Position numbers: made by a program. From a virus (taxonomy: Duplodnaviria; Heunggongvirae; Uroviricota; Caudoviricetes), in IMG/VR virus record IMGVR_UViG_2622736468_000002: a stretch of 46,428 bases of DNA. One strand, 5' to 3'. Shown here piece by piece: positions 12,001-18,000 of the stretch (position 1 is the stretch's first letter; every line of letters begins with the position of its first letter).

Positions 12001-15000
12001 GATAAGCGCGGCGGGGCGAAAATTCCAGAGCGCGGCGTGTGCAGCAATAGTTGAGCAGTTACGTCGTCTGCCGAAACCAACGTCGGCACCTGCTTCAGTG
12101 GAGATCGTGTTGTTTCCTCCGGATAACCGGATCCGCGATCTGGACAACTATAACAAGGCGCTGTTTGACGCCCTGACCCACGCGGGTGTGTGGGAAGACG
12201 ACAGTCAGGTGAAAAGAATGCTGGTGGAGTGGGGACCGGTTATCCCGGAGGGGAAGGTCGAGATCACTATCAGTAAGTACGAAAAAGCGAGTTGCAAATT
12301 AGCAACTCGGTAACGGAATTGAGCAACACCCTAAATTTGGGTATTACCTCGTTAAAGATACTGTATTTATGAACAGTGTATCCTTGATAACTATTAAAAA
12401 TCGCAGTAAGTTCATCCTGCATCAACGAAAAGGGAGTGCAGTCCCGCTCGTGGATAAAAATTTGTGGAGAAACCAATGAATCAGTTGCTTGTAATTGATG
12501 GCGTTTCTGTGCGCCAGTACTTCGAATCTAACTACTGTCTTAACGACCTTCAGAAAGCTGCTCTTCTTGCCGCTGGTGAGAATCGCTCCTCCCGTTCGCT
12601 GGAAGTTCACGAGTTTATGCGTCGTCCTGAAACGAAGGCTCTTGTGGAATTATTGGAAGAAGAAACTACGGGAGATTCCCGTAGTATTCCTGTCATCACC
12701 ATTCAGGGGCGCAATGGTGGGACGTATGTCTGTAAAGAGCTGGTCTATGCATATGCAATGTGGATCAGCCCGGCATTCAGCTTAAAAGTGATACGTACTT
12801 TTGATGCGCTTCATAATTCATCACCAGAAGAAACCACATCCGACAAAATTAAATCCGGGGTCATTCTGCTTGAATCAGCAGCAAAGACTCTAAATCTGTC
12901 AAACTCCTCGAAACTTGGTGCATACCAGAAATTATCAAAGGTAGCTGGTCTTCCTGAACTTATGCCGATCTATGCCATTGATGCACCTGCTGATGCGCCA
13001 GATGGTTCAAGCCGCCCTACGCTGTCGCTGAGTGCACTGCTGAAGCAGTATGGTATCCGCCTGACGGCTAATCAGGCATATCACCAGATGGCGAAGCTGG
13101 GGATCGTTGAACAACGCGAACGATACAGCCGTACCGCGATTAACAACATCAAAAAATTCTGGTCGCTGACCGCGAAAGGCTGCATGTTCGGCAAGAACAT
13201 CACCAGTCCTGCAAATCCGCGCGAGACGCAGCCGCATTTCTTCGAATCCCGATTTCCTGAGCTGTTAAAGCTGCTCGATACCGTTCATTGAGGTGACTGT
13301 GAGAGCACTACTGACCCCTGAAATTGCCCCGCGTATGGGGATCGTATTGTTCAGGCCAGGTTCAGAGCTGATGCCCCTGTTTATGCAGGGGCGTGTCCTG
13401 CTGGAGCCTGAGCCGGAGCGTTATTCATCTTTCGCCAGTGGTGCCGTTCCGGCGGCATCACAACCGCTGGCGGATGATCCTGCCGTTCGGGCCGTGTTCC
13501 GCCATGAGGCAGTGATCCGTCGTGCTGGTGGCGTGGAATGTCTTGAAAGCTGGTTACTTCGTGAAAAAGGCTGCCAGTGGCCTCATTCCGGATGGCACAG
13601 CGAGAACATGACCACAATGCGACACGCTCCGGGTGCAATCCGTCTGTGCTGGCACTGCGATAACCAGCTGCGCGATCAGTTCACGGAACGGCTGGAATCA
13701 ATGGCAACGGATAACTGTGCCCGCTGGGTGTTGTCTGTTGTGCGTCGGGATCTCGGTTTTGATGACAGTCACGTTGTGACAATGCCGGAACTGTGCTGGT
13801 GGCTGATTCGTAATGACCTGGCGGATGCCTTACCGGAAAGTGCAGCCCGTAAGGCACTGAGATTACCGAAGCCTGTTGTGCCGTCTGTCACCCGGGAAAG
13901 TGACCTTGTGCCTTCGGTTCCTGCCACCAGCATCATCCAGGATAAAGCGAAAAAGGTGCTGGCGCTGAAAGTGGATCCGGAGTCGCCGGAGTCTTTTATG
14001 TTACGCCCCAAACGTCGCCGCTGGGTTAATGAAAAGTACACGCGCTGGGTTAAGACGCAGCCGTGTGCATGTTGTGGAAAGCCTGCTGATGATCCCCACC
14101 ACCTGATAGGCCACGGTCAGGGGGGAATGGGTACAAAAGCGCATGACCTCTTCGTGCTGCCTTTGTGCAGAAAGCATCACGACGAGCTGCATGCGGATAC
14201 CGTGGCATTTGAAGAGAAGTATGGCTCCCAGCTGGAGCTGATATTTCGTTTTATCGATCGTGCGCTGGCAATAGGCGTGCTGGCCTGATTTTGTGGAGAA
14301 AGTTGATGCGTGATATTCAAATGGTTCTTGAACGTTGGGGGGCATGGGTGGCAAATAATCACGAGGATGTGGAATGGTCATCTGTTGCTGCAGGTTTTAA
14401 GGGATTAATTCCTTCGAAAGTAAAATCCCGCCCGCAATGTAGCGATGACGATGGCCTGATCATTAGCTCTGCGATGACAGTTCTTAAGAAAAAGGAACCG
14501 TATCAATACGAATTACTGGAAATGTATTATGTGTATGGGGTTACATTACGGGTGTTGGGGGTAAAACTGGGGATATCACTTAATCAGGTTGTTATCAGAC
14601 TGCAGAAAGCTGAAGGGTTTATTGACGGTTGTCTGGCAATGTTGGGGGTATCTTTAGAAATTGATTGTTACATATAGTAATAAATTCAATCAAAGTAAAT
14701 AATCATATTTTATTATAACCTCCTGATGATACCTGTTCATTGGGAGGTTATTATGGATAAAAATGTAGAGCATGTATTAGTTGATGCAATTGAAAATAAG
14801 CAATCTTTAACAGTCGTTTACTTAGGAGGGAGCCAGCCCGGAACATTAAGGAATATTTCTCCGATTAGTATAAATGGGGATAAATTGCGGGCAAGATGCC
14901 ATAGTTCTGGAGCAGTAAAGGTTTTCAATCTTGGGAAAATACAGTTACCCAGTGACTCCTGCGCGGTATCTATGCACTATGGAGATTTAGAAGTTAAAGC

Positions 15001-18000
15001 TTATGAGACGATGCAGAGCGTAAATGACAACTTTCATGCCCTTTATCCTGAAGGACGATGGGGTGTTGATTTTAATGAGCATCGCTTTGCTTTATTTGAT
15101 TTTTTTAAAAACGGGAAACGAAAAAAACGGCATTTATGGCAATTGAGTTCAGGGAAAGAGATGAAGAGAAAATAATAACAGGTGTAACAATTGATATTGG
15201 TATATCTGGAACAGTGATTTCTGAGAAGTCCCGAATCCCAAAAAGACGACCATGGGTAGTGGTTGGTCCCGAACACGGAGAATACAGTACTTATTCAACT
15301 TTGGACAAGGCTGCTACAGCGTTTTTTGAGAGGCTTTCGTTGATAGCATCCGGCCTGGAAGATAATTGATTTTATGTTTGGTATTCAGAGTTCGCCGTGC
15401 TTAAGAAAGTCAAGATTCTAAAAATACTGAATGAGCTACTTGTGTTATAACAAAAATGCTATTAGTGTGTTAAGAGTGGTTACTTCGCCACACAACTTAA
15501 ACCCGCCACTGAGCGGGTTTTTTGTACCTGTAAACTTGGTGCAGTACAGTAAACACGCTGGTGGTCGTGAATACTGGCTTTTTATCTTGCTGGCTTTTTA
15601 GACAAGAGTTATTGGTATGTCACGTTAACCGGAAAGGGTAAAAAGACATGCTGAAACAGCAGGATATGACAGAAACCGCCAGAGTTGTGTTTGATGAATT
15701 AAGCGTTACCGAACCGGCGACAGTCGGGGAGATTGCGCAGAATACTTACCTTTCACGCGAACGCTGCCAGTTAATACTGACCCAGCTTGTTATGGCGGGT
15801 CTGGCAGACTATCAGTGCGGTTGTTACAGACGCCTTCAGTCCTGAAGGCTTTTTATTTGTGGTGAATGGGCGGCTGGTGGGGGGGCGACACCTGTCAGTC
15901 CTTTGCTTATGTGTTGATGATAATTTACCTTTTGGGGCTATAATTGAGCTAACCAATTGCTAATGAAAGTAAAATTATAATGGCTGTTGTCTGTTCAGTT
16001 ATCATGGTTTGCTCCCCAATTAATATTTTTCTTGAAAAGGATACGTTGTCACTTAAGCCAGGCTCAGTTGTTCTGGCCACCAAATGCATCAGGGAGCTTT
16101 TCCTTATGCATTATGGCAAAGTTAAAATTGTCGATATAAGCGAATCCGTCGTAAGTCAATATCTGGAAAGTCAGCATAAGCTGACGAGGACTCGTCTGAC
16201 TGACATTCCGCTTTACCTGTTGCTGGAACCCAACAATCCTGCGTTGGCTGCGGCTTTAATTACCAGCCAGGGATTTTCCGGAGAGGCCACGGATATGTTT
16301 CTTATGATGGCCTGCCTGTCTCTGTTTGAAACAGATGAACGGATGTCATTGTTTTTAAGTGGATGTTTATCCAGCATAAGTGCCAAAGTCAGGGCGATAA
16401 TTCAGACAGATATATCAGCAAGCTGGACGCTTGGTGCGATTGCTCTACAGTTGCATATGAGTGAGAGTTTGTTAAAGACAAAACTGAAAAATGAAGGGGG
16501 CATGTTCAGTCGCTTGTTGCTGGAAGAGCGGATGCGTGTTGCTGTAAATATGTTATGTTCCCGGCATGGATATGGACAGGCTATAGCAGAAAAATGCGGT
16601 TATTCAAGCAGGTCCTACTTTATTTCTGTATTTCACCGCTATTATGGCTTCCCGCCAGACAGATATGTATCCAGGCAAGGGCTTGATTATTGATTTTCAT
16701 CTGATTATTATTTTTGGCTCGGCCCTTTAGCTCAGTGGTGAGAGCGAGCGACTCATAATCGCCAGGTCGCTGGTTCAAATCCAGCAAGGGCCACCATCAC
16801 ATACCGCCATTAGCTCATCAGGAAAGAGCGCCAGCCTTCGAAGCTGGTTGCGCGGAGTTCGGGTCCCCGAAGGCGGTTCATTATCTGTATCCTGCGTTGT
16901 TAGCTCAGCCGGACAGAGCAATTGCCTTCTAAGCAATCGGTCACTGGTTCGAATACAGTAGAACGCGCCACACTTATTTTCCCTGGCTCGCTTTTGCGGG
17001 CTTTTTTTTAAATGTCTCACAATTCAGGCGGTTGACTGTTGTCTGGTTTGCGGGGAGTTTGTTAAAAGAAACTGGCATGGTGAATCCCCCTGTGCGGAGG
17101 GGCAATCAGCGAGTAGGTATATGGGATAATCGCGGATTCAGGTGCTGGTACTGAATTCACCGGGAGGCACCCGGCACCATGCAATGGCACATAGTGCCAC
17201 TCTCCAGCCCCTCTCCGGAGGGGCTTTCTTATGGACAAAAAAAGCCCGCGCAGGGAGACGCGGGCGGCAAGGAATAAACAACAAAACGTGAAGTAATATT
17301 TCAGCTGGCGAATAATATCCGACAGTAATCACTCTGCGCAATAGCGCGGCCTTTTTCGTATTGCGGGCTGTTGTCTATCTTCTGCCATTGTCCTGTAACT
17401 TCCGGACTTCAGCCCGCTCCTCATTTTACTCACAATATTATCCAGGCCGGGAGGATTCATGGCATTTAAACACTATGACGTGGTCAGGGCGGCGTCGCCG
17501 TCAGACCTTGCGGAGCGACTGACACAAAAACTGAAGGAGGGGTGGCAGCCATTTGGCAGTCCGGTGGCCATCACGCCTTATACCCTGATGCAGGCCATTG
17601 CGGCGGAAGGTGATGTCACCACACCTGTGGTGGTGAAGCCGTCGGATGGAGAAGGCGCAGTTATCAGCACCACCAGCAACCCGGAGTATTACTTTGTTGT
17701 TGCCCTGGCCGGGCAGTCAAACGGTATGGCGTATGGTGAAGGGCTTCCGCTGCCGGAGACATATGACCGTCCGGACCCGCGTATTAAACAGCTGGCGCGT
17801 CGCAGCACTGTCACGCCGGGTGGTGCGTCCTGTAACTACAATGACATTATTCCTGCGGACCACTGCCTGCATGATGTTCAGGATTTGAGTAAGTTTTCAC
17901 ACCCGAAAGCTAGCGCAGCTCAGTATGGATGCGTGGGGCAGGGATTACATATCGCGAAGAAATTGTTGCCGTTTATTCCGGCGAATGCCGGTATTCTTCT

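Follow-up and report, generated by a model that had tools for sequence, protein, structure and literature searches.

An AT-rich stretch directly behind the gene for antiterminator Q raises the question of how many genes it holds. It lies in the window analysed here, the 46,428-nucleotide sequence of the IMG/VR virus record IMGVR_UViG_2622736468_000002 (Caudoviricetes), and contains two overlapping open reading frames (ORFs) of 140 and 77 amino acids (aa) together with a run of seven adenines (A7) at which the two frames can be joined. A preliminary description, made from the sequence alone, had offered three readings: programmed frameshifting that yields one protein, a single gene interrupted by a homopolymer indel, and a pair of genes. 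The underlying features were all confirmed, namely both ORFs, the A7 run, the Q gene upstream and the low GC content (0.35-0.40 over 14450..15650, against 0.54-0.60 immediately upstream). Among the readings, that of a broken gene stood, and those of programmed frameshifting and of two genes fell on the A8 run found in relatives, the single-ORF homologues and the position of the break inside a beta-strand. We conclude that the pair is very probably one 205-codon cargo gene of a lambdoid Escherichia coli prophage, located between Q and the late promoter pR', that was broken by the loss of one A from a run of eight (A8).

A single reading frame interrupted at an adenine run

Many complete E. coli genomes contain a 99.9% match to the 901 bases that surround the locus, and the counterpart stretch there has 902 bases. 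In E. coli S88 and MS7163, the sole difference in the gene is one extra A, which gives A8, and the region is annotated as a single 618-nucleotide (nt) coding sequence (CDS), WP_000360285.1, named "WYL domain-containing protein" or "hypothetical protein". Among 5426 complete genomes, this allele is found at 99% identity or more in 52, with A7 in none of those listed. A 78%-identical allele is found in 22 further genomes, also with A8 and 205 aa, and one copy of it sits between Q and stx2 in a prophage carrying the Shiga toxin gene (Stx2 prophage). Furthermore, the restored protein matches phrog_8498 over residues 1-205 of 205 (E value 2.9e-126). When tract length is compared across prophages, A8 is therefore the normal state in both the close and the 78% alleles, and A7 and A9 are minority states. 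The interpretation favoured in the preliminary description, in which a slippery tract links two ORFs, is not upheld, because near-identical prophages have A8 and one 205-aa CDS.

An exact-sequence look-up, with products counted in contigs, found the intact 205-aa protein on at least 1000, a product truncated by a nonsense codon (K119*) on 90, the A9 product on 39 and the A7 product, which is the form in the window, on 19, with 18 more called from an alternative start; the orphan 77-aa ORF was found on 169. The in-frame A8 thus prevails by more than 25 to 1. The nonsense change, AAA to TAA, is present in CFSAN029787 and RMDEC332 and lies at a T7/A5 junction 18 nt upstream of the A-run. All three known lesions (A7, A9 and K119*) fall within codons 119-127, which hold the longest homopolymers of the gene (T7 and A8), so that mutational bias suffices to explain their clustering. 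A7 itself is found in at least five distinct mosaic prophage backgrounds, short-read assemblies included, indicating that the allele arises or spreads repeatedly. Over 6.4 kb, the window is 100% identical to one of the carriers, GCA_901482365.1, which is probably its source and apparently a long-read assembly of the National Collection of Type Cultures (NCTC); in that one genome A7 could accordingly be an assembly error.

The two E. coli alleles differ with a ratio of non-synonymous to synonymous substitution rates (dN/dS) of 0.225 in the joined frame and, by segment, of 0.13 in the WYL part, 0.25 in the middle and 0.31 in the part that is the orphan ORF here, read within the single ORF. The lesion maps to codons 124-126, inside strand 123-133 of the C-terminal domain (AlphaFold model from a 45-sequence alignment, mean predicted local distance difference test score, pLDDT, 83.9). 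The split thus falls within a folded domain rather than in a linker, which makes this copy a loss-of-function allele, at most a leaky one. One A has been dropped from A8, by replication slippage or possibly through an assembly error, and this splits the frame into an N-terminal 140-aa ORF and an orphan C-terminal 77-aa ORF.

The A7 allele may nevertheless be slightly leaky. The run is phased in the frame of ORF1 as cgA AAA AAA, a correct X XXY YYZ heptamer, and the wild-type frame is open from 15127. The -1 slip that had been proposed to join the two frames has the correct geometry, and its product is the exact 205-aa wild-type protein. Since such a slip, or one A added in transcription, gives ...KRKK-TAFMAIEF... 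as in the wild type, a rare ribosomal slip or an addition by RNA polymerase on the A-run could regain some of the protein, and the function of the copy in the window would be either lost or cut to a trickle. In annotations, the two ORFs ought to be joined into one entry for a WYL-domain gene and marked as frameshifted, and not given as a recoding site or a two-gene module. The features of the locus are collected in Table 1.

Table 1. Features of the locus, with positions in the window
Feature	Position	Strand	Description
Antiterminator Q gene	14306..14677	+	123 aa from the RefSeq start; directly upstream of the WYL gene
Hairpin, 15 bp	14715..14751	+	Buries the Shine-Dalgarno (SD) sequence GGGAGG (14742..14747) of the WYL gene
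Whole frameshifted gene	14753..15369	+	617 nt, one fewer than the intact WYL-domain gene of 618 nt and 205 aa (WP_000360285.1 family, phrog_8498)
ORF1, 140 aa	14753..15175	+	WYL barrel (residues 1-66), linker and first half of the C-terminal domain (domain limits from AlphaFold2), then 14 out-of-frame residues
A7 homopolymer	15121..15127	+	Site of the -1 deletion; A8 is the intact state
ORF2, 77 aa	15136..15369	+	Orphaned C-terminal part (wild-type residues 128-205); -1 frame relative to ORF1
Homologue of the Stx-phage late promoter pR'	15440..15476	+	-35 TTGTGT (15440..15445), -10 TAGTGT (15463..15468), inferred start A15475 in TAAGAGTGG
Terminator-like hairpin and T-run	15499..15526	+	About +25 to +52 of the inferred pR' transcript; from RNA folding; kept in Stx and other lambdoid phages

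Phase variation, recoding or two genes

Three other readings of the A-run have to be weighed, and jointly we grant them only a small probability. The one that survives best, although we regard it as improbable, is that of a phase-variable contingency gene, in which A8 would be kept as a reversible switch (on with A8, off with A7 or A9) and lysogen populations would be mixed. Such a switch is consistent with the natural occurrence of A7, A8 and A9, a frame-switching polymorphism of tract length among close relatives, with the spread of A7 over its five or more backgrounds, and with the retention of A8 in an allele diverged by 22% at the DNA level. This retention is, however, explained by a conserved R-K-K-T that is read with AAA codons, and the A-run is absent from remote homologues. 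Furthermore, the off states together make up a small share of the contigs, and the nonsense allele, which is not reversible, is commoner than either A7 or A9. An A-run of 8 nt is also short for an efficient phase switch, which again counts against this reading.

Somewhat more doubtful is programmed -1 ribosomal frameshifting or transcriptional slippage, by which A AAA AAA would be used deliberately to make the 140-aa and 205-aa products in a fixed ratio. A-runs are known slippage sites in E. coli, as in dnaX and in IS elements, and the likeness to the A AAA AAG of dnaX and to the A-runs of IS elements extends to an A heptamer in the right 0-frame register, on which a -1 slip joins the frames and makes exactly the 205-aa protein. 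The site in the window differs from these in having no stimulatory structure, in a two-frame layout that is not conserved and in an in-frame A8 as the normal state. No stimulatory stem-loop or pseudoknot was found 3' of the heptamer: the region 15105..15200 folds at -5.2 kcal/mol (z-score +0.36), and 121 of 200 shuffled sequences fold as well. The in-frame A8 is the majority state and is also the state of both diverged alleles, and in remote homologues (23-36% identity) the ORF is single and the corresponding position lacks an A-run; these two observations, together with the absence of a downstream structure, led us to reject programmed frameshifting. The tail of the 0 frame past the site consists of 14 unconserved residues, and the A9 and nonsense alleles are present as well, as decay predicts.

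Least probable of all is a pair of functional genes, in which a WYL-only protein of 140 aa and a protein of 77 aa would each work, for instance as a toxin-antitoxin-like or sensor-effector pair: although the WYL barrel (1-66) is spared by all three known lesions and the 77-aa ORF has an ATG of its own and is an annotated CDS in some RefSeq genomes, we rejected this reading because the break lies inside a strand of a single domain, and, in addition, inspection of the sequence found no good SD upstream of the second ATG, split forms are rare, and the roughly 950 cluster representatives of the family include no naturally split member, truncated fragments aside.

The intact WYL-domain protein and its relatives

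The single gene that we take to be broken in the window encodes, in its intact form, a two-domain cytoplasmic protein whose N-terminal domain is a WYL domain, and an earlier guess to this effect proved right by fold, by profile match to DriD and by conserved contact residues. Two AlphaFold models agree on an N-terminal helix with a five-stranded barrel (1-66), a disordered linker and a C-terminal helix/antiparallel-sheet/helix domain (81-205). The five-stranded barrel is Sm-like or SH3-like and can be superposed on solved WYL domains. In this sequence, the match to PF13280 over residues 8-64 stays below the gathering cut-off, with 16.5 bits against 21.8 (E 0.0085), and 39 of 107 relatives match it at E<=0.01, the best with E 4.8e-8. 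Furthermore, a sequence search of the PDB with the family profile retrieves DriD (E 1e-4), with YhGGSQPGavREIaP aligned to DriD YEGGSTPGRTREVTP. In structures of DriD with single-stranded DNA (ssDNA), Y168, S172 and R178 of this loop touch the phosphates of the ssDNA, and activation is abolished by Y168A or R176A/R178A (PMC10853764). These three residues align with Y23, S27 and R33 in the beta1-beta2 loop of the protein studied here, which are invariant in the 45-sequence alignment. To judge from these residues, the intact protein probably binds ssDNA.

The remainder of the protein departs from the known regulators. DriD, PafBC, BrxR and CapW are transcription regulators of about 290-330 aa that sense ssDNA and combine a winged helix-turn-helix (wHTH) with WYL and WCX domains, whereas the present protein has 205 aa, no winged HTH and no three-helix bundle, and its C-terminal domain does not align with WCX, the dimerisation domain. 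No HTH family was found in Pfam or NCBIfam, where the NCBIfam search of the protein returned nothing at all, and a single helix precedes the WYL barrel, which begins near residue 8. Lacking an HTH and a WCX, and being this small, the protein alone cannot be a DNA-binding transcription factor. For the C-terminal alpha/beta domain we found no known relative. Superposition on WCX covers only about 70 residues with no sequence match, and nothing in the viral library resembled the fold at E<=0.001. The protein also differs from WYL1, the ssRNA-binding accessory of Cas13d with ribbon-helix-helix and WYL domains, in that it has no ribbon-helix-helix, no CRISPR association and another partner domain.

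Relatives were counted as clusters at 50% identity. Searched with a profile, a set of 1.84 billion cluster representatives yielded 957 relatives at E<=1e-3, nearly all of them 187-210 aa long and matched end to end. A search for related loci with a profile built from a 5-sequence alignment gave 7 loci. One relative, in Leucothrix, stands among genes for an AAA_15 ATPase/FRG, a GmrSD_N/HEPN and a NERD protein, a neighbourhood that looks like a defence island. In the Pseudoalteromonas phage PY3, a longer relative lies between the integrase and a LexA-like repressor (2006..3115 of the PY3 stretch), and in a metagenomic phage contig a relative follows the tail genes. No conserved partner gene was found across these three contexts. 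Longer relatives of about 370 aa (phrog_31886) carry the module of WYL and C-terminal domain followed by about 170 extra residues, in which the only informative domain fusion is a double zinc ribbon in the extension of one protein.

The intact gene is an accessory gene that is annotated, but its protein family is uncharacterised. Of the earlier wording, "uncharacterised accessory or defence module", the accessory part is thus fair for the intact gene, whereas a match to known defence systems did not emerge: PADLOC-DB v2 gave no defence-system match and only weak generic Cas-associated WYL models (E 0.0014 and 0.0066). Nothing specific was found in the literature on the accessions, on phrog_8498 or on HTH-less phage WYL proteins. 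The two-ORF feature is an ordinary frameshift allele, and what interest remains attaches to the cargo slot between Q and pR' and to the protein family. In this family, about 950 clusters of WYL proteins without an HTH, from phage cargo slots and defence islands, have retained the residues with which DriD contacts ssDNA.

A domain that senses a ligand but has no output domain attached could plausibly serve as a sponge or an adaptor in the conflict between phage and host. We hypothesize that the ligand of the protein is ssDNA, or a related nucleic acid, that would build up in phage replication or DNA damage. With neither a DNA-binding nor a catalytic domain, it would act by sequestration or by protein-protein signalling, and not by transcription control or catalysis, most likely in phage-host or phage-phage conflict. 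A bolder extension, to which we assign a low probability, is that WYL sensors of this stand-alone kind, which join a DriD-like ssDNA pocket to a new C-terminal domain and lack an HTH, form a large class not described before. Temperate phages would then express the protein with Q, either to absorb or mask the ssDNA signal through which immunity is turned on by host WYL regulators (BrxR, CapW) and by other sensors or, in the opposite sense, to trigger the exclusion of rival phages, and A8 would in addition be a leaky on/off switch in lysogens.

The slot between Q and pR' and the genes downstream

The upstream neighbour is called antiterminator Q family protein in the S88 annotation and matches PF06530 (Phage_antitermQ) over model positions 1-118 of 118 (E 1.3e-47). 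It is 56-58% identical to Q of Stx2a phages and also matches Q21 structures, to which its relation is distant (E 5.6e-10).

On the other side, the gene is followed by a homologue of pR', which we located by alignment with phage P13374, where the pR' start module TAAGAGTGG directly abuts the stop codon of Q (1923..2010 of the P13374 stretch). With the A of GATAAGAGTGG taken as the start in P13374, the GU/AUU falls at +173 and the second terminator has its T-run at +258, which are the distances that mapping of pR', the RNase E site and tR' gave in the Stx phages of Sakai (PMC7547250). Furthermore, TAnnnT hexamers are found at the same offset in five phages with different cargo, and the stretch from about 15469 onward (TGTTAAGAGTGGTTAC to the hairpin) is common to many lambdoid phages. 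Positions 15440..15530 hold the pR' homologue and the first ~50 leader nucleotides, with which the StxS precursor begins. A terminator had been claimed after the ORFs, and an 8-bp GC-rich hairpin with a T-run does fold there; it was not listed by a consensus terminator scanner. An alternative placement of pR' directly after Q, by which the gene would lie inside the pR'-tR' leader, was rejected on the P13374 alignment and the +173 and +258 landmarks.

As the pR' homologue is 3' of the gene, the gene lies outside the Q-dependent late transcript where stx sits. The earlier placement at the locus where lambdoid phages carry stx was therefore imprecise: the gene is between Q and pR', and stx is downstream of pR'-tR'. 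In the window, the cargo between Q and the pR' homologue measures about 760 bp. The contents of this slot differ between phages, with one unrelated reverse-strand gene in PhiR40_1, two reverse-strand genes in Stx2a_1447 and none in P13374. Like the morons and other cargo of lambdoid phages (stx, bor, lom and genes of the nin region), the WYL gene thus occupies an AT-rich variable slot in which other phages hold unrelated genes, but, unlike cargo of the stx type, it closes the Q operon and precedes pR'. Q933-like prophages thus have a variable slot for cargo between Q and pR', distinct from the stx slot downstream of pR'.

No sigma-70 promoter was found between Q and the WYL gene, either with a scanner or by eye. 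This, together with the position between Q and pR', suggests that the gene would be transcribed with Q as the last delayed-early gene, with its ribosome-binding site masked by the hairpin that buries the SD. The RNA of 14700..14770 folds at -23.3 kcal/mol (z-score -3.84), and 0 of 200 shuffled sequences were as stable. The 78% allele has the same hairpin (z-score -4.55), and three of its four substitutions keep the pairing. The hairpin may accordingly be a translational control element. An Rfam search of 14680..15450 gave no family; a weak match to STnc130 on the minus strand at 15491..15613 is below threshold.

Downstream of the pR' leader, a 65-aa ORF (15648..15845) is conserved in many lambdoid and Stx phages (phrog_331, E 6e-37) and has weak winged-helix-like Pfam matches (TrmB and MarR, E 0.003-0.06). 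It is followed at 15980..16693 by a gene for an AraC-family regulator related to YdeO and GadX (phrog_1450; NCBIfam YdeO E 4e-31, below the cut-off), which takes the place of a DNA methyltransferase in related phages and which we take to resemble the prophage-encoded regulators of acid resistance and of the type III secretion system (T3SS) of enterohaemorrhagic E. coli (EHEC). Three tRNA genes (Met-CAT, Arg-TCG and Arg-TCT) follow at 16721..16970, as they do upstream of stx in Stx phages. No toxin genes were found in the window between these tRNA genes and the gene for a SASA-family carbohydrate esterase of 653 aa (17459..19420), which is NanS-p-like (DUF1737, SASA and DUF6645) and stands at its place downstream of stx in Stx phages. 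Behind the tRNA genes, the small RNA STnc100 (RF02076, 102 bits) is strongly matched at 17046..17200, up to the edge of the searched stretch.

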